A DNA stretch of 20,995 bases, taken from the IMG/VR virus record IMGVR_UViG_2778261417_000010. One strand, written 5' to 3'. Position numbers and translations under genes: made by a program. The DNA is from a virus (Duplodnaviria; Heunggongvirae; Uroviricota; Caudoviricetes). Positions 1 through 9,177 of this stretch are shown in pieces. Below the pieces are notes generated by a model. It worked only from the letters and a program-made list of their open reading frames with translations, was not told the origin of the DNA and ran no database searches. Position 1 is the stretch's first letter; each line of letters starts with the position of its first letter.

Positions 1-318
1 ATGAAAAAGATAGCTGCTATATCATTAATTAGTATTTTTATTATGTCTGGTTGTGCTGTGCATAATGATGAGACAAGTATCGGTAAATTTGGTCTTGCAT
101 ATAAAAGTAATATTCAGCGTAAACTCGATAACCAATACTACACCGAAGCCGAAGCTTCTTTAGCCAGGGGTAGAATATCTGGTGCAGAAAATATAGTAAA
201 AAATGATGCAACTCATTTCTGTGTTACTCAGGGCAAAAAAATGCAAATAGTTGAGCTGAAGACAGAAGGTGTAGGATTACATGGTGTCGCTCGTCTGACA
301 TTCAAATGTGGAGAGTGA
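1..318 (+). CDS. small putative lipoprotein (host flank, outside the prophage)
   Basis: Complete ATG..TGA ORF, 105 aa. N-terminus MKKIAAISLISIFIMSGC looks like a signal peptide ending in a lipobox-like MSGC. Sequence is visibly AT-rich. No family recognised. Confidence 0.55.
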   Translation: MKKIAAISLISIFIMSGCAVHNDETSIGKFGLAYKSNIQRKLDNQYYTEAEASLARGRISGAENIVKNDATHFCVTQGKKMQIVELKTEGVGLHGVARLTFKCGE

Positions 319-380
319 GAATATTTTTTGGTAAGCGTCAAATATGCGCGTTCTGGCTGTGCGTAGCCGGAACCTGTGGG

Positions 381-413
381 AGCACGATGCCGATAAGTGA
401 AAGGCATCGTGCT
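381..413. repeat. perfect 11-bp inverted repeat with 11-nt loop in host flank
   Basis: AGCACGATGCC (381-391) / GGCATCGTGCT (403-413), read directly. No T-run follows on either strand, so not a canonical intrinsic terminator. Confidence 0.5.
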
Positions 414-477
414 ATGAAGGAGGATTCTATCGATGTGGTCAATGGAAGACGGTTACCAGAGATAGGGCTTATGCATA

Positions 478-504
478 AAAAAATAAGCCCGTGTAAGGGA
501 GATT
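478..504. other. attL: putative P2-type attachment core (attL junction between host and prophage)
   Basis: AAAAAATAAGCCCGTGTAAGGGAGATT lies ~80 bp beyond the 3' end of int. It matches the 27-bp P2 att core as I recall it from memory, not verified. AT-rich host-like sequence lies to its left. Confidence 0.5.
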
Positions 505-583
505 TAGGGTGTCACCAGTAGGGGCTTTCAACGGTACAATGCGGGTTTGAGCGGCATAAATTACCACTGAAAGCCCTTAAACG

Positions 584-1597
584 TTACTCTACTGTGGACA
601 CTGTGTGGACACTCTCGACCTCAGTACCACCTCTTAGCGGATTAAGAGAAATGGCGTCCTGAAGGTACTCTGGCGCAAAATGAGCGTAAACCATAGTTTG
701 CTCAATCCGCGTGTGACCTAGTATCCGTTGTAGCGTGATAATACTTCCTCCATTAATCATGAAATGAGTGGCAAAGCTGTGCCTTAGTGCATGTGTAGCT
801 TGCCCCATTGGCAAATCCGGTTTTATTGCTTTCATTGTTCGTCTGAAGCGAGGGTAATCAGCATCAGGGAATAAAAAACCTCGTTTGTTATCCGCGATCA
901 TTTTGGCAACAGCCTCTGAGATCGGGACGGTGCGTGGTTTGTTTGTTTTCGTTTTAACAAACGTGACGCGGTTATGGATGATATTTTCTGCTTTCAAACG
1001 AGCTGCTTCTCCCCAACGTGCTCCAGTACTCAGGCAAAGAATCGCAATCTTTTTGTTGTCGCCGTCAAGAGCAGCAAGCAGTAAGGCAATTTCTTCCTGC
1101 GTGAGATAGCCTGTGTCTGGTTTTTCCTCCTTAAGCCTTTTTGTCCCTCTGATAGGGTGCTCACCAAAGAATAACTCCGCTTCAATCAGGGCTGTAAACA
1201 TGCCGCTAATACATGTTAAATCACGATTGATACTCGAAGGTTTAATACCCTGACTTCTTCGGGTGGCGCAGTACTGGCTGATAAGCGATTTCGTAATTTG
1301 AAATGCGCATGGGTCATTCGTTATTTTTGTGAAGATTTCAATTTTCCCAAGATTAGATTTCCCATGCTCTTCGTGTTTACCCTTTAAATCCCACCAGATC
1401 TGTGTCAGCTCCGACAGACGTCGCTTGTCTGTTGGTTTTGATAGCCATTCTTTATTGTGGTGGTTGTACAACGTGTATTTCTCGAAAGCGACAGCTTCGC
1501 TTTTCTTATCAAACTTCCTACGGATGCGTTTTCCATTACGTCCAGTAGGGCGGATGTCCACTTCATATCGACCATCATCGAGTTTTTTGATTGCCAT
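584..1597 (-). CDS. int: tyrosine integrase (P2 Int-like)
   Basis: 337-aa ORF, ATG start preceded by GGAGGG. Sequence MAIKKLDDGRYEVDIRPTG...HALRHSFATHFMINGGSIITLQRILGHTRIEQTMVYAH carries the tyrosine-recombinase R..H..R..Y C-terminal catalytic region. Length equals P2 Int as recalled. Confidence 0.95.
   Translation of the reverse strand: MAIKKLDDGRYEVDIRPTGRNGKRIRRKFDKKSEAVAFEKYTLYNHHNKEWLSKPTDKRRLSELTQIWWDLKGKHEEHGKSNLGKIEIFTKITNDPCAFQITKSLISQYCATRRSQGIKPSSINRDLTCISGMFTALIEAELFFGEHPIRGTKRLKEEKPDTGYLTQEEIALLLAALDGDNKKIAILCLSTGARWGEAARLKAENIIHNRVTFVKTKTNKPRTVPISEAVAKMIADNKRGFLFPDADYPRFRRTMKAIKPDLPMGQATHALRHSFATHFMINGGSIITLQRILGHTRIEQTMVYAHFAPEYLQDAISLNPLRGGTEVESVHTVSTVE
593..612. repeat. tandem direct repeat TGTGGACAC x2 at the int 3' end; candidate Int arm-type binding sites
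   Basis: TGTGGACAC at 593-601 and 604-612, read directly. Overlaps the last codons of int (..HTVSTVE). Assignment as arm sites is inference. Confidence 0.3.
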
Positions 1598-1712
1598 CAG
1601 AAAACCCTCCGAGTGGTGTGTTTTTTTGCGACTACTAATCGCTTTTTTCGTGGTGGCTGAAATTTAGCCACCAATAGTAGGCACTTGTGATGAATATATT
1701 CACGATGAATTG

Positions 1713-2012
1713 TTAACCAGTCTTTTGACCGGAGTGGGGCGACGTTGTTTCGTTTTGCCCAAAGTGTGCGAGAGCGGGCGCAATTTGCCCGGACTCAGGA
1801 GCGATCTGATTGGTCATGAACCATAAAGTGTATTTGGTGAATTGTGGGGTCTGCAGGATGTTCATCATGACATCTGTTGGAGGTGTTGAACGACCACTTT
1901 CATAGTAACTCAGCGTGCCATACGGAACCCCTGTTAAATCAGCAAGTTGTTGTCTGCTCAAATACTCTGATTTTCGCATTAAGACTATCTTCTCGCTTAT
2001 CGTGTTTGACAT
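1713..2012 (-). CDS. C: immunity repressor (P2 C-like)
   Basis: 99-aa ORF upstream of and co-oriented with int. N-terminal helix-turn-helix-like segment (SRQQLADLTGVPYGTLSYYESG). Length and position match P2 C. Confidence 0.9.
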   Translation of the reverse strand: MSNTISEKIVLMRKSEYLSRQQLADLTGVPYGTLSYYESGRSTPPTDVMMNILQTPQFTKYTLWFMTNQIAPESGQIAPALAHFGQNETTSPHSGQKTG

Positions 2013-2045
2013 GGTGTTTAGATCTCAATAGTATTTAGTTTAGAT
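2006..2045 (+). promoter_or_regulatory. early promoter Pe with two direct-repeat operator half-sites (lysis-lysogeny switch)
   Basis: -35 TTGACA 2006-2011, 17-bp spacer, -10 TAGTAT 2029-2034. Direct repeats TTTAGAT at 2017-2023 and 2039-2045 (22 bp centre-to-centre) flank the -10, as described for P2 C operators O1/O2. Confidence 0.5.
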
Positions 2046-2083
2046 GTAGATTGTTTAGTGCTTGGATGTGGGCACTAAAAGGC

Positions 2084-2112
2084 ATTATAAGACATTAAAC
2101 GCAATTCATGAG
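2084..2112 (-). promoter_or_regulatory. candidate Pc (repressor promoter), face-to-face with Pe
   Basis: Minus-strand TATAAT at 2084-2089. I could not find a good -35. Placed by analogy with the convergent Pe/Pc arrangement of P2. Confidence 0.3.
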
Positions 2113-2126
2113 GGCTAGAGGACGAC

Positions 2127-2402
2127 ATGAGCAAGCAAGTAACACTCATGACTGATGCGATTCCTTATCAGGAGTTCGCAAAACTAATAGGAAAATCGAC
2201 AGGAGCGGTTCGTCGGATGATCGATAAAGGAAAGCTGCCTGTAATTGATATGACCGATCCACAATCAGCTTCAGGTCGTGCAGGTGAATATTGGGTATAC
2301 CTTCCGGCATGGAATAACGGACTAAAACTGGCTTATGAAAGCCGCCCTAAAGAGATTCGTGACGGCTGGTTGATGTGGTTAGGTCTCGGTGAACCACGTT
2401 AA
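2127..2402 (+). CDS. cox: Cox (excisionase / Pc repressor)
   Basis: 91-aa ORF, first gene of the rightward early operon. Sequence MSKQVTLMTDAIPYQEFAKLIGKSTGAVRRMIDKGKLPVIDM recognised as P2 Cox-like. Confidence 0.9.
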   Translation: MSKQVTLMTDAIPYQEFAKLIGKSTGAVRRMIDKGKLPVIDMTDPQSASGRAGEYWVYLPAWNNGLKLAYESRPKEIRDGWLMWLGLGEPR

Positions 2403-2412
2403 GGAGAACCGT

Positions 2413-2583
2413 ATGAATGAGCCTCGTTGTATTGCTCAGTTACTGCGTAACGAAAGCCCCAGGGCGATTGACTTCACCATCACCCACGGTAAGGGGCGTA
2501 AGGGAATCATTATCCGCACCAAAAAACAGAGTCCGTTAAAAAAGGCTCTGACCTTTCTGAAAAGCCGGAGGGTATGGAAATGA
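2413..2583 (+). CDS. small early protein (P2 orf78 position)
   Basis: ORF track starts at GTG 2389, but ATG 2413 has a consensus AAGGAG (2401-2406) 6 nt upstream. 56 aa, basic. Assigned by synteny. Confidence 0.55.
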   Translation: MNEPRCIAQLLRNESPRAIDFTITHGKGRKGIIIRTKKQSPLKKALTFLKSRRVWK

Positions 2584-3080
2584 CAGTGATGACGCTCAAT
2601 CTCGTTGAAAAACAGCCAGCAGCTATGCGCCGGATAATTGGCAAGCATCTTGCCGTCCCTCGCTGGCAGGATACATGTGATTATTATAATCAGATGATGG
2701 AGCGCGAACGGCTAACGGTTTGCTTTCATGCACAGTTAAAACAGCGTCACGCAACGATGCGTTTTGAAGAAATGAACGACGTCGAACGTGAACGGCTGGT
2801 TTGTGCAATTGATGAATTGCGTGGGGCATTCTCAAAACGCCGTCAGGTCGGTGCAAGTGAGTATGCATATATTAGTTTTTTAACAGTCAGCCAGCGACGT
2901 ACTTTATTTATGCACGCACGACTGACAGAAAAAGAATTCAACCAGCCGTACTGGCGAATTAATGAAGAATCATGTTACTGGCGTGATGCTTTATTCCGTG
3001 CATTACGTGAATTATTCAGTCTGTTTGAGTATGCACCGACAATTCTGACGTCGGTAAAACCAGAGCAATATCTGCATTAA
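2580..3080 (+). CDS. B: replication protein B (helicase-loader-like)
   Basis: ORF from ATG 2574 is 168 aa; ATG 2580 has better spacing from GGAGGG (2566-2571) and gives 166 aa, the P2 B length as recalled. Position between cox and A. Confidence 0.8.
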   Translation: MTVMTLNLVEKQPAAMRRIIGKHLAVPRWQDTCDYYNQMMERERLTVCFHAQLKQRHATMRFEEMNDVERERLVCAIDELRGAFSKRRQVGASEYAYISFLTVSQRRTLFMHARLTEKEFNQPYWRINEESCYWRDALFRALRELFSLFEYAPTILTSVKPEQYLH

Positions 3081-3143
3081 ATAATTAACCAGAGTTTTTA
3101 ACGCACTTAATCGTGCGGGGCTTCTTTTTGCCTGGAGAAAGTC

Positions 3144-3368: not shown

Positions 3369-3670
3369 TGTCCTGTTCTCATTCAGTTGTATTACTGAAT
3401 AACGCCTTAAAAATCGCCGTTATGGAAAATGGTGATTTATCTCTTATTCAACTTTGTCTTGATAAAGAAAAACGCGACATAACTGAATCTGTTATCGCGA
3501 TTTATCAGAATGAATTAAACCTCCTGTCTGATGTGGTCAATTTACTTGTTAAACGCGCTGTATTCCACAAGCAAATTTCCTCCGTGGATGAACTGACAAA
3601 ATTAACGACAGAAATCGTCAGCTATTGCGCTGATGAATTTAAGAAACTGAACGACAAAAGGAACTGGTAA
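3368..3670 (+). CDS. hypothetical early protein (P2 orf81 position)
   Basis: ORF track start 3365 is TTG. ATG 3368 overlaps the upstream stop (TGATG coupling). About 100 aa. Confidence 0.65.
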   Translation: MSCSHSVVLLNNALKIAVMENGDLSLIQLCLDKEKRDITESVIAIYQNELNLLSDVVNLLVKRAVFHKQISSVDELTKLTTEIVSYCADEFKKLNDKRNW

Positions 3671-3894: not shown

Positions 3895-4166
3895 GTATTC
3901 GTATTGAAATTGGCGAACGTTATGTCGTTACCAGTGACAGCTTTCAGTTTATTCTCCACGAGAAAAAGAGAGCGGAAAGCGGTAAAAACGCCGGTCAGGA
4001 ATGGCTGTCGGTGGTTGGTTATTACCCGAAATTAAGCCAGCTCGTTTCCGGCATGATGCATCACGATATTCTGACCGGAAGCGCAAAGTCTTTTGCTGAT
4101 TTAAACGCGCAGGTTGAGCAACTCAGCAAGCGTTGTTCAGAGGCTTTTGGCTCATATGGCCGTTAA
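3891..4166 (+). CDS. hypothetical early protein (P2 orf83 position)
   Basis: 91-aa ORF, ATGA overlap with the upstream gene. Assigned by synteny. Confidence 0.65.
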   Translation: MSIRIEIGERYVVTSDSFQFILHEKKRAESGKNAGQEWLSVVGYYPKLSQLVSGMMHHDILTGSAKSFADLNAQVEQLSKRCSEAFGSYGR

Positions 4167-6426
4167 AGCCTCCGGGCGTTTTGTCCCTCCATCAGCATTT
4201 GCCGCAGGCACCGGTAAGGCGTTTACCGGTGCTTATGCATGGAACGCGCCACGCGAGGCTGTCGGGCGCGAAAGACCCCTTACACGTGACGAGATGCGTC
4301 AGGTGCAAGGTGTTTTATCCACGATTAACCGCCTGCCTTACTTTTTGCGCTCGCTGTTTACTTCACGCTATGACTACATCCGGCGCAATAAAAGCCCGGT
4401 GCACGGGTTTTATTTCCTCACATCCACTTTTCAGCGTCGTTTATGGCCGCGCATTGAGCGCGTGAATCAGCGCCATGAAATGAACACCGACGCGTCGTTG
4501 CTGTTTCTGGCAGAGCGTGACCATTATGCGCGTCTGCCGGGGATGAATGACAAGGAACTGAAAAAGTTTGCCGCCCGTATCTCATCGCAGCTTTTCATGA
4601 TGTATGAGGAACTCTGCGATGCATGGGTTGATGCACATGGCGAGAAAGAATCGCTGTTTACGGATGAGGCTCAGGCGCATCTGTATGGTCATGTTGCTGG
4701 CGCTGCACGAGCTTTCAATATTTCCCCTCTCTACTGGAAAAAATACCGTAAAGGACAGATGACCACGAGGCAGGCATATTCTGCCATTGCCCGTCTGTTT
4801 AACGATGAGTGGTGGACTCATCAGCTTAAAGGTCAGCGTATGCGCTGGCATGAGGCGTTACTGATTGCTGTCGGGGAGGTGAATAAAGACCGTTCTCCTT
4901 ATGCCAGTAAACATGCCATTCGTGATGTGCGTGCGCGCCGCCAGGCAAATCTGGAATTTCTTAAATCGTGTGACCTTGAAAACAGGGAAACCGGCGAGCG
5001 CATCGACCTTATCAGTAAGGTGATGGGAAGTATTTCTAATCCTGAAATTCGCCGGATGGAGCTGATGAACACCATTGCCGGTATTGAGCGTTACGCCGCC
5101 GCAGAGGGTGATGTGGGGATGTTTATCACGCTGACCGCGCCGTCAAAGTATCACCCGACACGTCAGGTCGGAAAAGGTGAAAGTAAAACCGTCCAGCTAA
5201 ATCACGGCTGGAACGATGAGGCATTTAATCCAAAGGATGCGCAGCGTTATCTCTGCCGCATCTGGAGCCTGATGCGCACGGCATTCAAGGATAATGATTT
5301 ACAGGTCTACGGTTTGCGTGTCGTCGAGCCACACCACGACGGAACGCCGCACTGGCATATGATGCTTTTTTGTAATCCACGTCAGCGTAACCAGATTATC
5401 GAAACCATGCGTCGCTACGCGCTCAAAGAGGATGGCGACGAAAGAGGAGCCGAGCGAAACCGTTTTCAGGCGAAACACCTTAACCGGGGCGGTGCTGCGG
5501 GGTATATCGCGAAATACATTTCAAAAAATATCGACGGCTATGCACTGGATGGTCAGCTCGATAACGATACCGGCAGACCTCTGAAAGATACTGCCGCGGC
5601 TGTTACTGCATGGGCGTCAACGTGGCGCATCCCGCAATTTAAAACGGTTGGTCTGCCGACAATGGGGGCTTACCGTGAACTACGCAAATTGCCTCGCGGC
5701 GTCAGCATTGCTGATGAGTTTGACGAACGCGTCGAGGCTGCACGCGCTGCCGCAGACAGTGGCGATTTTGCGTTGTATATCAGTGCGCAGGGTGGGGCAA
5801 ATGTTCCGCGCGATTGCCAGACTGTCAGAGTCGCCCGTAGCCCGTCGGATGAAGTTAACGAGTACGAGGAAGAAGTCGAGAGAGTGGTCGGCATTTACGC
5901 GCCGCATCTCGGCGCGCGTCATATTCATATCACCAGAACGACGGACTGGCGCATTGTTCCGAAAGTTCCGGTCGTGGAGCCTTTAACTTTAAAAAGCGGC
6001 ATCGCCGCGCCTCGGAGTCCTGTCAATAACTGTGGAAAGCTCACCAGTGGTGATACTTCGTTACCGGCTCCCACACCTTCTGAGCACGTCGCAGCAGTGC
6101 TTAATCTGGTTGATGACGGTGTTATCGAATGGAATGACCCGGAGGTCGTGAGGGCGCTCAGGGGCGCATTAAAACACGGACTGAGAACACCAAATCGTCA
6201 GCAAAGAGCCGGAAGCCCGTTAAAACCGCATGAAATAGCACCGTCGGCCAGACTGACCCGGTCGGAACGATTGCAAATTACCCGTATCCGCGTTGACCTC
6301 GCTCAGAACGGTATCAGGCCGCAACGATGGGAGCTTGAGGTGCTGGCGCGTGGCGCGACCGTAAATTATGACGGGAAAAAATTCACGTATCCGGTCACTG
6401 ATGAGTGGCCGGGGTTTGTGGATTAA
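4156..6426 (+). CDS. A: replication initiation endonuclease A (rolling-circle nicking protein)
   Basis: ORF track start 4114 is TTG. ATG 4156 (MAVKASGRF...) follows GAGG and overlaps the upstream stop by 11 nt. Contains HUH-type motif HWHMMLF (~5351-5368) and active-site tyrosine pair in GYIAKYISK (~5503-5526). Confidence 0.9.
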   Translation: MAVKASGRFVPPSAFAAGTGKAFTGAYAWNAPREAVGRERPLTRDEMRQVQGVLSTINRLPYFLRSLFTSRYDYIRRNKSPVHGFYFLTSTFQRRLWPRIERVNQRHEMNTDASLLFLAERDHYARLPGMNDKELKKFAARISSQLFMMYEELCDAWVDAHGEKESLFTDEAQAHLYGHVAGAARAFNISPLYWKKYRKGQMTTRQAYSAIARLFNDEWWTHQLKGQRMRWHEALLIAVGEVNKDRSPYASKHAIRDVRARRQANLEFLKSCDLENRETGERIDLISKVMGSISNPEIRRMELMNTIAGIERYAAAEGDVGMFITLTAPSKYHPTRQVGKGESKTVQLNHGWNDEAFNPKDAQRYLCRIWSLMRTAFKDNDLQVYGLRVVEPHHDGTPHWHMMLFCNPRQRNQIIETMRRYALKEDGDERGAERNRFQAKHLNRGGAAGYIAKYISKNIDGYALDGQLDNDTGRPLKDTAAAVTAWASTWRIPQFKTVGLPTMGAYRELRKLPRGVSIADEFDERVEAARAAADSGDFALYISAQGGANVPRDCQTVRVARSPSDEVNEYEEEVERVVGIYAPHLGARHIHITRTTDWRIVPKVPVVEPLTLKSGIAAPRSPVNNCGKLTSGDTSLPAPTPSEHVAAVLNLVDDGVIEWNDPEVVRALRGALKHGLRTPNRQQRAGSPLKPHEIAPSARLTRSERLQITRIRVDLAQNGIRPQRWELEVLARGATVNYDGKKFTYPVTDEWPGFVD

Positions 6427-6471
6427 ACTTATTGATAAATAATGTGTCAAGATAACGCCAGGTAATTATAT

Positions 6472-6909
6472 ATGGTAAGAGTTTGCATTGATAAGAAAGG
6501 GAATGTTATCACCGATATCTCTTTGGGAGTCGGGGATTTTGAAGATTGTTGTAGCGTAGCAGAGGAGAAGTATAATCAGGCACTTTGCAGTAATTTTGTG
6601 AGTGTGGTGGCAGTGGTGAATGACGATAATGAGAAAATAGGTTTTTGTTCATTCATCATTGAATCTACAGAGGACGCTGTAATATATCAAATCGATTATG
6701 TTTGGGTTAAGCAAAGTGAGCGGGGACAAGGGTTATCAAAATTAATGATTCCTTATGTGGCTCAAGAGCTTATTTCTATTTATAAAGACTTGCTTGGAAA
6801 GTATTCATTTGGTGATATATGTCTTTGTGATAATTCTGTTTATATATCGGATGGAGGGGCTGTTTTTGGTCGAGGGGTAAAGGGATTCACCTTTAATGTA
6901 ATTAAGTAA
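6472..6909 (+). CDS. small GNAT-like N-acetyltransferase (cargo gene in the A-cos hotspot)
   Basis: 145-aa ORF in a conspicuously AT-rich island. Beta strand IYQIDYVWV followed by RGQGLSKLM fits the GNAT motif-A acetyl-CoA pyrophosphate loop (R/Q-x-x-G-x-G/A/S). No obvious SD before ATG 6472. Family call from motif only. Confidence 0.55.
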   Translation: MVRVCIDKKGNVITDISLGVGDFEDCCSVAEEKYNQALCSNFVSVVAVVNDDNEKIGFCSFIIESTEDAVIYQIDYVWVKQSERGQGLSKLMIPYVAQELISIYKDLLGKYSFGDICLCDNSVYISDGGAVFGRGVKGFTFNVIK

Positions 6910-6950
6910 TTCCGGGTGAAATGAAAAAGATATCTCAATGTTTGAGATGG

Positions 6951-7004
6951 AACAAATTTAAGAAACTCCGCCGGTGCTGAAACTTGCTTTCAGTGCTGGC
7001 GGAG
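6951..7004 (-). terminator. candidate intrinsic terminator for the 143-aa cargo gene; hairpin also foldable on the plus transcript
   Basis: Hairpin 6966-7004 (CTCCGCCGGTGCTGAAA / loop CTTGC / TTTCAGTGCTGGCGGAG) starts 14 nt past the minus-gene stop. On the minus strand it is followed by a U-rich run (complement of 6951-6965). On plus RNA the stem is 17 bp with three G-U pairs but no U-tract. Confidence 0.4.
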
Positions 7005-7017
7005 GTGAAGTAAGGCG

Positions 7018-7449
7018 TTAGCTAGTTATCAGATTGACACCGAGGGTAAGCAGGTTTGTTACTGCACCGGCAATAACACCAGGTGTCCCGTCCTTCACTG
7101 CGCTGATAATCTTATCTCCCATCGTTTCATTACCGCCAAGTGCTTCGGGTTTTTTGTTGAGCACCGCGAGTGCTTTCTCGGTCAGTCGCACATCATGAAA
7201 ACCGGTCTGATGGTCTGTTCCGTACAGAATATAGCCGTTTTCGCTTAAGAAAGTGAATGTGCCATCAACCACACTACGCAACTGATTCAGTGCTTTCATT
7301 TCTGGTGAGTTAAGTTGGTCAAAGTAGTCATCAGGTAACGCGGCGTTAAATTTTTTGTAGGTGATGACTTGTGGTACAGGAAAGTTATCCCATAGCACCG
7401 CAAAGATTTCTGCCGTCTGTTGGTTGAATAATTCGAGATTTTTGGACAT
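7018..7449 (-). CDS. hypothetical protein, 143 aa, hydrophobic glycine-rich C-terminus (cargo gene in the A-cos hotspot)
   Basis: ATG (plus CAT 7447-7449) with AAGGGA about 9 nt upstream on the minus strand. AT-rich. C-terminal GTPGVIAGAVTNLLTLGVNLI is glycine-zipper-like. No family recognised. Confidence 0.65.
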   Translation of the reverse strand: MSKNLELFNQQTAEIFAVLWDNFPVPQVITYKKFNAALPDDYFDQLNSPEMKALNQLRSVVDGTFTFLSENGYILYGTDHQTGFHDVRLTEKALAVLNKKPEALGGNETMGDKIISAVKDGTPGVIAGAVTNLLTLGVNLITS

Positions 7450-7510
7450 GCATAGTTCCCTTTCATCAATTAAAGACCCTTATGCCGACTGGGCAAAGAG
7501 GCTAACTGTA

Positions 7511-7642
7511 ATGGCCTCAAATAACGACCTGAGCTCACGCGAGGTGGACAGTTACACTGAAAAAATGGTTGAACAAGCCAGTAAAGATGAGCTTATGGTC
7601 GTTATAAAATACCTGTTAAATCACATCAGAATGAGTAAATAA
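7511..7642 (+). CDS. possible small ORF (43 aa) divergent from the 143-aa gene
   Basis: ATG 7511 with AAGAGG (7496-7501) 9 nt upstream; MASNNDLSSREVDSYTEKMVEQASKDELMVVIKYLLNHIRMSK. Could instead be the untranslated promoter region of the minus-strand gene. Confidence 0.3.
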   Translation: MASNNDLSSREVDSYTEKMVEQASKDELMVVIKYLLNHIRMSK

Positions 7643-7782
7643 AATGATCTATATCAAGATGTTATCTCACATTTATGAAAGTCCGTGGACAACGATTTTT
7701 CTGCTAATTGTTGTCAGTACGTGCCTCAACAGTGTGATTGGTGCATTGCGCGGCCAGTGACAACTATAAAAATTGATCAGAA

Positions 7783-7808
7783 CCGGCACCATGAATGCCG
7801 GTTTTTTT
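7783..7808 (+). terminator. rho-independent terminator upstream of cos
   Basis: CCGGCA (7783-7788) / loop CCATGAA / TGCCGG (7796-7801) followed by TTTTTTT (7802-7808). Confidence 0.6.
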
Positions 7809-7953
7809 GTGCTTTTTCTGTGATATCCCCGTTTTTATCTGTGCATGGTTTTGCATGTGCCGGAGTTACATGTTCTGGCTGTGCGTCCGCCAGGACTGGC
7901 GTGGCTCAAAAGCGGTATTGCAACTGCATTAAAACCGCCCCATGAAGCGGGCG

Positions 7954-7972
7954 GGCGAGGCGGGGAAAGCAC
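7954..7972. other. cos: cos site (19-nt cohesive end sequence of P2-type phages)
   Basis: GGCGAGGCGGGGAAAGCAC matches the P2 cohesive-end sequence as I recall it. Located just upstream of the Q gene end, as expected for cos in a P2 prophage. Confidence 0.7.
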
Positions 7973-8115
7973 TGCGCGCTGGCGGTGGTGCTGATTTTAT
8001 TTTTTCAGCGTCTGAGCGCGTCGTGACGGCGTTTAGTCTGCCCGTTGGGGGCGTTGGTGTGTCTGCGGGCTGTTTTGTGCTGTGGTGAGCGTGTGAGGGC
8101 GTGATGACGGGATGT

Positions 8116-8137
8116 AAAAAAGCCGCCCGCAGGCGGC
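8116..8137 (-). terminator. rho-independent terminator downstream of Q
   Basis: On the minus strand GCCGCC / loop TGCG / GGCGGC followed by TTTTTT (plus-strand A-run 8116-8121), beginning 6 nt after the Q stop. Confidence 0.55.
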
Positions 8138-8142
8138 GATGT

Positions 8143-9177
8143 TCAGCCGTTGTCAGTGTCCAGTGAGTAGTTTTTAAAGCGGATGACCTCCTGACCGAGC
8201 CAGCCGTTTATCTCGCGGATCCTGTCCTGTAACGGGATAAGCTCATTGCGGACAAAGACCTTTGCCACTTTCTCAATATCTCCCAGTGACCCGACGTTCT
8301 CCGGCTTGCCGCCCATCAACTGAAAGGGGATACGGTGCGCGTCCAGCAGGTCAGCGGCGCTGGCTTTTTTGATATTAAAAAAATCGTCCTTCGTTGCCAC
8401 TTCACTGAGCGGGATAATTTTAATGCCGTCGGCTTTCCCCTGTGGGGCATAGAGAAACAGATTTTTAAAGTTATTGCGGCCTTTCGACTTAACCATGTTT
8501 TCGCGAAGCATTTCGATATCGTTGCGGTCCTGCACGGCATCGGTGACGTACATGATGTATCCGGCATGTGCGCCGTTTTCGTAATACTTGCGGCGGAACA
8601 GCGTGGCCGACTCATTCAGCCAGGCAGAGTTAAGGGCGCTGAGATATTCCGGCAGGCCGTACAGCTCCTGATTAATATCAGGCTCCAGCAGGTGAAACAC
8701 GGAGCCGGGCGCGAAGGCTGTCGGCTCGTTGAAGGACGGCACCCACCAGTAAACATCCTCCTCCACGCCACGACGGGTATATTTGGCCGGTGAGGTTTCC
8801 AGTCTGATGACCTTACCGGTGGTGCTGTAACGCTTTTCCAGAAACGCATTACCAAACACCAGAAAATCCAGCACAAAGCGGCTGAAATCCTGCTGGGACA
8901 GCCACGGATGCGGGATAAATGTCGAGGCCAGAATATTACGTTTGACGTAAATCGGTGAGCTGTGATGCACGGCAGCACGCAGGCTTTTTGCCAGACCGGT
9001 AAAGCTGACCGGTGGCTCATACCATCTGCCGTTACTGATGCACTCGACGTAATCCAGAATGTCACGGCGGTCGAGTACCGGCACCGGCTCACCAAAGGTG
9101 AATGCCTCCATTTTCGGGGCGCTGGCGGTCATTTTTTTTGCCGCAGGTTGCGGTGTTTTCCCTTTTTTCTTGCTCAT
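8143..9177 (-). CDS. Q: capsid portal protein
   Basis: 344-aa ORF, same length as P2 gpQ as recalled. ATGA overlap with the P stop. Located between cos and P. Confidence 0.95.
   Translation of the reverse strand: MSKKKGKTPQPAAKKMTASAPKMEAFTFGEPVPVLDRRDILDYVECISNGRWYEPPVSFTGLAKSLRAAVHHSSPIYVKRNILASTFIPHPWLSQQDFSRFVLDFLVFGNAFLEKRYSTTGKVIRLETSPAKYTRRGVEEDVYWWVPSFNEPTAFAPGSVFHLLEPDINQELYGLPEYLSALNSAWLNESATLFRRKYYENGAHAGYIMYVTDAVQDRNDIEMLRENMVKSKGRNNFKNLFLYAPQGKADGIKIIPLSEVATKDDFFNIKKASAADLLDAHRIPFQLMGGKPENVGSLGDIEKVAKVFVRNELIPLQDRIREINGWLGQEVIRFKNYSLDTDNG

Follow-up and report, generated by a model that had tools for sequence, protein, structure and literature searches.

The 20,995-nt stretch of DNA analysed here (the window) is a P2-like prophage of Escherichia coli. 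Its genes follow the order integrase, repressor, Cox, B-like, small early genes, gene A, a gene annotated as a GNAT family N-acetyltransferase, two small backbone genes and portal gene Q, after which the terminase, scaffold, capsid, lysis and tail genes are found. The P2-like order is complete in the identical prophage region annotated by PGAP. The GNAT gene is placed between gene A and portal gene Q, and this gpA-gpQ interval is a published P2 hotspot of anti-phage systems; P2 itself has old and tin (PMC9122126). Table S5 of the same study (Rousset et al. 2022) includes the GNAT protein, labelled 'hypothetical' and outside the tested systems. For function, this prophage and hotspot context, which an earlier sequence-only reading of the DNA overlooked, outweighs the comparison with GNAT toxins drawn there. 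The coordinates of the features are given in Table 1.

In one sibling prophage, an extra 335-aa PAPS_reduct-domain gene is located just upstream of gene A (L022:3675-4682) and looks like another early-operon cargo insertion.

Table 1. Features of the gene A to portal Q region, with positions numbered from the first letter of the window
Feature	Position	Strand	Description
P2-type replication endonuclease gene A	4114..6426	+	Phage_GPA, E 7e-124; left hotspot border; PGAP start 4156
Single-gene cargo cassette, 0.53 kb	6427..6957		35.6% GC vs 52.8% in the window; similarity to siblings lost and regained at its edges
Weak Shine-Dalgarno-like AGGTAA	6460..6465	+	Last base 7 nt ahead of the ATG
GNAT-fold ORF	6472..6909	+	ATG start; 145 aa; RefSeq WP_000252694.1, 'GNAT family N-acetyltransferase'
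Strand b4 (IYQIDYVWV) and motif-A pyrophosphate loop R84-G-Q-G-L-S89	6682..6738	+	Family alignment; 2jlm alignment
Motif-B-like S122-x-Y124-x-S126-x-x-G129-x-x-F132, b5/a4 junction	6835..6870	+	Family alignment
17-bp hairpin, right cassette edge	6966..7004	+	Kept whether the slot has GNAT, DinI or retron cargo
Backbone gene, 143 aa	7018..7449	-	phrog_2266; convergent with the GNAT gene
Backbone gene, 64 aa	7448..7642	+	phrog_2454; start overlaps that of the 143-aa gene
Portal gene Q	8143..9177	-	Phage_portal; right border of the gpA-gpQ hotspot

The GNAT gene and its cassette

The 145-aa open frame was found at the position given in the earlier reading, and both motifs quoted there are present, with the codons of IYQIDYVWV at 6682-6708 and those of RGQGLS(KLM) from 6721. 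The chance of a 145-codon open frame is about 3e-6 in DNA at the GC content of the cassette, and by index lookup the exact protein sequence was found in 1342 blocks of public assemblies. Together with the existence of diverged homologues that keep the motifs, these results indicate that the ORF is a real gene. Its GC3 is 0.32, vs 0.54 in gene A. The duplex between AGGTAA and the 16S 3' end was calculated at -3.8 kcal/mol, which is among the weakest of the 20 gene starts tested in the window (range -2.2 to -10.0 kcal/mol). The earlier remark that a clear Shine-Dalgarno sequence is lacking is therefore correct as to weakness and incorrect as to absence.

The GNAT gene follows gene A after 45 nt on the same strand, and scanning revealed neither a terminator between the two genes nor a + strand promoter-like site upstream. 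Four antisense promoter-like sites were found inside the ORF, vs 3.2 expected from shuffles, which is no excess. Taken together, the short gap, the shared strand, the missing terminator and promoter, and a + strand hairpin downstream suggest that the early (Cox-B-A) operon ends with this gene, which is most likely transcribed here as its final cistron. The leaderless transcript envisaged previously is not indicated by this arrangement. The other two P2-like phages that have a member of the family (see below) carry it in other orientations, so early-operon expression is no property of the family.

The left junction of the cassette lies at the last codons of gene A, where similarity to sibling phages ends; similarity to Midge, FSLSP004 and Klebsiella phages returns at about 6958. 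As + strand RNA, the hairpin at the right edge folds with -32.3 kcal/mol (z -4.6), vs -20.4 for the - strand, and no U-tract follows it on the + strand. This hairpin could be the 3' end or a stabiliser of the early transcript, as well as a recombination boundary of the slot.

In Midge, FSLSP004 and E. coli EC1, the same slot is occupied by a small hypothetical gene and a DinI gene with a LexA box, which in the Midge and EC1 cassette has the canonical form TACTGTATAAA(C/T)ATACAGTA. This DinI cassette is SOS-controlled and reminiscent of tum in phage 186. The box TACTGTATAAACATACAGTA was located at L026:1990-2015 and, in Midge (L001), at about 3545-3570, ahead of the hypothetical and DinI-family genes. 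The GNAT cassette has no LexA box. In O157:H7 FRIK2069 the slot holds an HTH gene and a type VI retron reverse transcriptase, and in strain 144 an MBL-fold PDC-M48B candidate. The gene-A-proximal slot is most commonly occupied by DinI, which does not count among the defence genes. Swapping by unrelated genes in collinear relatives, combined with the foreign GC content, identifies the GNAT gene as cargo: it forms a cassette of one gene that is exchanged for others in the slot nearest gene A within the gpA-gpQ hotspot. The gene was found to be identical in prophages at three or more attachment sites, which points to recombinational spread, and in every case it has no companion gene beside gene A.

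A further cargo slot adjoins the portal gene, at about 7979-8142; it is empty in the window, where identity with the siblings ends at 7978. In most GNAT-bearing prophages this portal-side slot contains an AAA_21/AAA_15 gene pair encoding 433 and 145 aa (L015/L016:8608-10355), the best PADLOC matches of which are PDC-M29A/B, AriA-like.

A divergent GNAT fold in a very small family

Profile searches and structure prediction indicate that the gene product is a divergent GNAT-fold protein. Pfam Acetyltransf_1 was passed marginally (22.0 bits vs a gathering score of 20.7) and Acetyltransf_7 was missed by one bit (26 bits vs a cut-off of 27). Acetyltransf_1 was also matched by 9 of 14 family members on their own (best E 2.4e-6), and PHROG acetyltransferase families matched the protein with E 3e-7 (phrog_3810). 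In the NCBIfam scan, no curated resistance-acetyltransferase model matched and just a faint match to EctA was obtained; at 18.3 bits this is far below the cut-off of 120.6, so that no curated acetyltransferase family, resistance-related or other, claims the protein. PADLOC yielded no credible model match (best E 0.025), and phmmer against the PDB returned a chance antibody match alone.

As AlphaFold reached a pLDDT of 40.7 with the single sequence, an alignment of 14 sequences was taken as the AF2 input instead. The resulting model (pLDDT 94.6, pTM 0.87) has five strands and three helices, in the predicted order b1(3-6), helix(28-39), b2(44-49), b3(55-66), b4(69-79), a3(88-108), b5(117-120) and a4(127-144). 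Canonical GNAT proteins are built as b1-a1-a2-b2-b3-b4-a3-b5-a4-b6(-b7), with a second N-terminal helix and with b6/b7 after a4. In the model there is one N-terminal helix, without a1, and the chain stops after a4, so b6/b7 appear to be missing. The family members are 135-155 aa long and their tails are not conserved in the alignment. The proposal of a minimal GNAT fold in 145 aa is thus backed by both the profiles and the AF2 model. With the GNAT superfamily, for example RimI (PDB 7n1l), Gna1 (6yug) and the polyamine acetyltransferase DpA (8a9n), the protein has in common the core of b2-b3-b4, motif A (RGQGLS), a3, b5 and a4, and on this core the profile and fold matches agree. Structures of the aminoglycoside acetyltransferases AAC(3)-I match it at the level of the generic fold alone (TM 0.35-0.48).

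Motif A was taken to be the pyrophosphate loop Q/R-x-x-G-x-G/A after strand b4. In this copy it is canonical (R84-G-Q-G87-L-S89), and the family profile sets the R84 loop against YRGLGLS of phosphinothricin acetyltransferase (PDB 2jlm). Invariant positions in the 14-sequence alignment are C59, S60, I74, R84, S122 and G129, and residue 89 is one of S, G or A. At position 87, 4 of the 14 members have G and 7 have K; since K, R or S stands there in 10 of 14, CoA binding across the family is not guaranteed. In the motif-B-like segment, where S122 and G129 are invariant, Y124 is kept in 12 members and S126 in 13.

Exhaustive phmmer searching over 1.84 billion representatives found 10 proteins at E 1e-3 or better, and a profile search of a 5.8-billion-cluster set found 8. 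The word-indexed homologue search returned the gene's own cluster alone, and 7 more clusters were obtained by profile search. No match was given by P0002 and P0004 scans of viral, genome and metagenome collections or by tblastn against plasmids; with a 4-sequence profile, GTDB species genomes gave no match and other collections identical copies alone.

Diverged members of the family occupy the gpA-gpQ hotspot in three P2-like phages. In another P2-like phage, from IMG/VR, P0003 (31-37% identity) is flanked by an Old homologue (PADLOC E 5e-207) on one side and by the portal gene on the other. In a P2-like element of Klebsiella pneumoniae, a P0007-type member (32% identity), antisense to A, has the interval from Q to A to itself. 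The Klebsiella pneumoniae record, filed as 'unnamed plasmid' (L035; CP052639.1:6274-18606), is a 32-kb P2-like phage genome with cytosine and Dam methyltransferase genes in its early operon and a family member as the sole hotspot gene. P0005 is two genes away from an AcrVA2-like gene and adjoins a type III-A retron (PRTase and reverse transcriptase), and its relative P0011 has PDC-S02 directly after it. Near P0005, L010:957-5478 encodes a 135-aa zinc-ribbon-like protein, the AcrVA2-like protein and the complete type III-A retron, so that a single contig of 9 kb combines anti-defence with defence genes. The metagenomic contig bearing P0009, which also has YqaJ, RadC and DUF932 genes, is probably a mobile element.

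A separate Vibrio clade is chromosomal and syntenic, always alone between mscS and osmC/DUF218. Its members are neutral to basic (pI 7.6-9.5), in contrast to the mobile-element members (pI 4.5-5.2), and this charge split may reflect different targets. The chromosomal, syntenic and basic character of the Vibrio clade fits a housekeeping or small-molecule role. As far as these searches reach, this GNAT family appears to be extremely small and structurally pared down, recurring in P2-like cargo slots and beside defence genes.

Neighbouring genes and the toxin-antitoxin comparison

The earlier reading described the neighbouring 143-aa gene as convergent and found no co-directional antitoxin gene, and both observations hold. 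No ORF of at least 40 aa is adjacent to the GNAT gene; the gap upstream separates it from gene A, and the 108 nt downstream contain the hairpin. PGAP annotation of the identical prophage region likewise shows no antitoxin. The 143-aa and 64-aa genes are divergent, their start codons overlapping at CATG 7447-7450, and P2-like phages of Escherichia, Salmonella and Klebsiella contain both of them. For phage Midge, the annotators recorded that HHpred shows the 143-aa protein to resemble T7 gp5.5/5.7.

Two neighbours were considered as partners and rejected. Of 5426 complete E. coli genomes, 79 have the 143-aa gene and 11 the GNAT gene, leaving 68 with the former and without the latter; in one assembly, an IS3-family element (HTH_Tnp_1 and rve; L023:7861-9023) splits the 143-aa gene while the GNAT gene is intact. 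The AAA_21/AAA_15 pair occurs with the GNAT gene in 8 complete genomes, the GNAT gene without the pair in 3 and the pair without the GNAT gene in 2. The pair is missing from the window and, among complete genomes with inspected loci, from LSN03-016011/A and O157:H16 98-3133; E24377A has the pair and neither the GNAT nor the 143-aa gene. Coupling to the pair was rejected because each occurs without the other and two backbone genes lie in between. Across the family no conserved partner was found in the contexts of the Vibrio chromosomes, the YqaJ/RadC/DUF932 element, the retron island and the three P2-like phages.

An Rfam scan over 6300-8200 gave one sub-threshold match, which lies outside the GNAT gene, and hence nothing points to an RNA antitoxin. 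The match, to the Burkholderia sRNA Bp1_738 at 7701-7808 on the - strand (20.7 bits vs a gathering score of 45, E 0.15), falls in a GC-rich, hairpin-rich stretch ahead of the portal gene where the cos site is expected, and is probably due to chance. From these gene contexts, the GNAT gene appears to stand alone, without a dedicated partner.

The toxins TacT, AtaT, ItaT and KacT have a DUF1778 antitoxin (PMC9177977), whereas the GNAT gene has neither such a gene, nor room for one, nor a conserved partner. The toxin chains matched by the protein comprise 154-180 residues; the protein itself has 145, lacks the C-terminal strands and is acidic, and its identity to GNAT/DUF1778 toxins is 9-15%. No toxin family model was matched and no RNA candidate emerged. 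With a pI of 4.50 and a net charge of -7, binding to tRNA is not favoured, charge being a proxy only, and the Vibrio orthologues are chromosomal and stand alone. The suggestion that the gene encodes a toxin restrained by some non-canonical partner found no support, as the 143-aa gene belongs to the backbone and no neighbour is conserved family-wide. The GNAT protein is therefore unlikely to be an aminoacyl-tRNA-acetylating toxin of a toxin-antitoxin pair.

Possible roles of the GNAT protein

The explanation that we favour, with confidence a little above even, is that the protein is a stand-alone, divergent and C-terminally shortened GNAT-fold acyl-CoA transferase, carried as hotspot cargo, that acylates a target in a conflict. 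Acetyl-CoA or another acyl-CoA would bind at the R84-x-x-G-x-S loop and in the b4/b5 cleft, and the acyl group would be passed to an amine of some molecule belonging to the host, a phage or a competitor. The acceptor side, predicted to be open since b6/b7 are missing, would suit a macromolecular target, or else the sheet may be completed by dimerisation. Expression from the early operon would imply action during infection or induction, and the role would lie in phage-host or phage-phage conflict, either counter-defence or host modulation by acetylation of a target, or exclusion of other phages.

Precedents for both directions of action may be found among GNAT proteins, AcrVA5 for counter-defence and Brc113 for defence. 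AcrVA5 is a GNAT-fold anti-CRISPR protein that acetylates Cas12a (10.1101/2021.11.16.468554). By analogy, the GNAT protein, which is likewise very small and located on a mobile element, could disable its target by acetylation; the two are unrelated, and the likeness is one of proposed working. Brc113/BrcP, which are integron cassettes with a single GNAT gene, have been reported to make bacteria resistant to phages (10.1101/2024.07.02.601719). The GNAT gene resembles Brc113, by description, in being a solitary cassette with a GNAT domain on a mobile platform, the platform being an integron for Brc113 and a prophage hotspot here.

A more far-reaching form of the favoured explanation is possible and is put forward tentatively. 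According to this, five-stranded GNATs without b6/b7 would constitute an unrecognised single-gene conflict module that has been captured repeatedly by P2-like phages of several enterobacterial genera, acting as an acetyltransferase that switches off an immune protein of the host or of a rival, or as an exclusion system of one gene, with a component of the incoming phage as the substrate of acetylation. With the known cargo of the gpA-gpQ hotspot (old, tin and retrons; PMC9122126), the GNAT cassette shares the locus, the cassette-like swapping and the low GC content. It differs from that cargo in being unrecognised by PADLOC and in sitting in the gene-A-proximal sub-slot, usually the place of the LexA-controlled DinI. 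As the commonest gene of this slot is a non-defence gene, the argument from hotspot location is one of guilt by association.

Single-gene anti-phage defence in the lysogen is somewhat doubtful as an alternative. In such a case the gene would be expressed from its own weak promoter and would acetylate a component of the incoming phage or a host factor that it needs. The position in the P2 gpA-gpQ hotspot, the retron and PDC-M48B in sibling slots, the family members beside Old, a type III-A retron and PDC-S02, and the low GC content of the cassette all speak for this, as does the precedent of Brc113, by analogy. The homologues in two other P2-like phages, moreover, must have a promoter of their own. 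The GNAT gene, however, has no + strand promoter-like site upstream and a gap of just 45 nt to gene A, and it is without a PADLOC match. Defence in the lysogen overlaps in part with the explanation that we favour, in which the direction of action is left free.

Acetylation of a small molecule (a polyamine, a diamine, an antibiotic or another xenobiotic), which would give the lysogen a metabolic or resistance benefit and make the gene a conventional moron, is improbable. It agrees with the Vibrio clade and with the weak similarity to EctA, diamine and AAC-like proteins, but all of these similarities are generic to the fold and the NCBIfam models offer nothing beyond EctA at 18 bits vs 120.6. 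Furthermore, the mobile-element members form a distinct acidic group among defence and anti-defence genes. It is more improbable still that the protein is a non-catalytic remnant of the GNAT fold, serving as a decoy or inhibitor through binding to CoA or to a target protein. The predicted fold without a1 and b6/b7, the motif-A glycine that is not conserved in the family, and the small size and acidity, as in many phage inhibitors, speak for such a remnant. On the other side, this copy has a canonical motif A, and R84, C59, S60, S122 and G129 never vary in the family, which argues for a conserved small-ligand site rather than a surface alone. The weakest of the rivals is a TacT/AtaT/ItaT-like toxin that acetylates aminoacyl-tRNA and is neutralised by an unusual partner, for instance an RNA or the 143-aa protein, which the evidence on partners, size and charge given above makes highly improbable.

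The GNAT name in RefSeq and the hotspot, described in 2022, were already known. WP_000252694 is mentioned in no paper found by literature search. New are the tiny, reduced family, its repeated capture in the P2-like hotspot, the lack of a partner gene and the absence from defence databases. Nothing in this analysis shows an unusual mechanism for the GNAT protein, and if it is a plain small-molecule acetyltransferase, the gene would be an ordinary moron. Very few examples of one-gene, acylation-based defence or counter-defence have been characterised, and the GNAT gene of this prophage is a cheap and well-defined candidate for such an enzyme.
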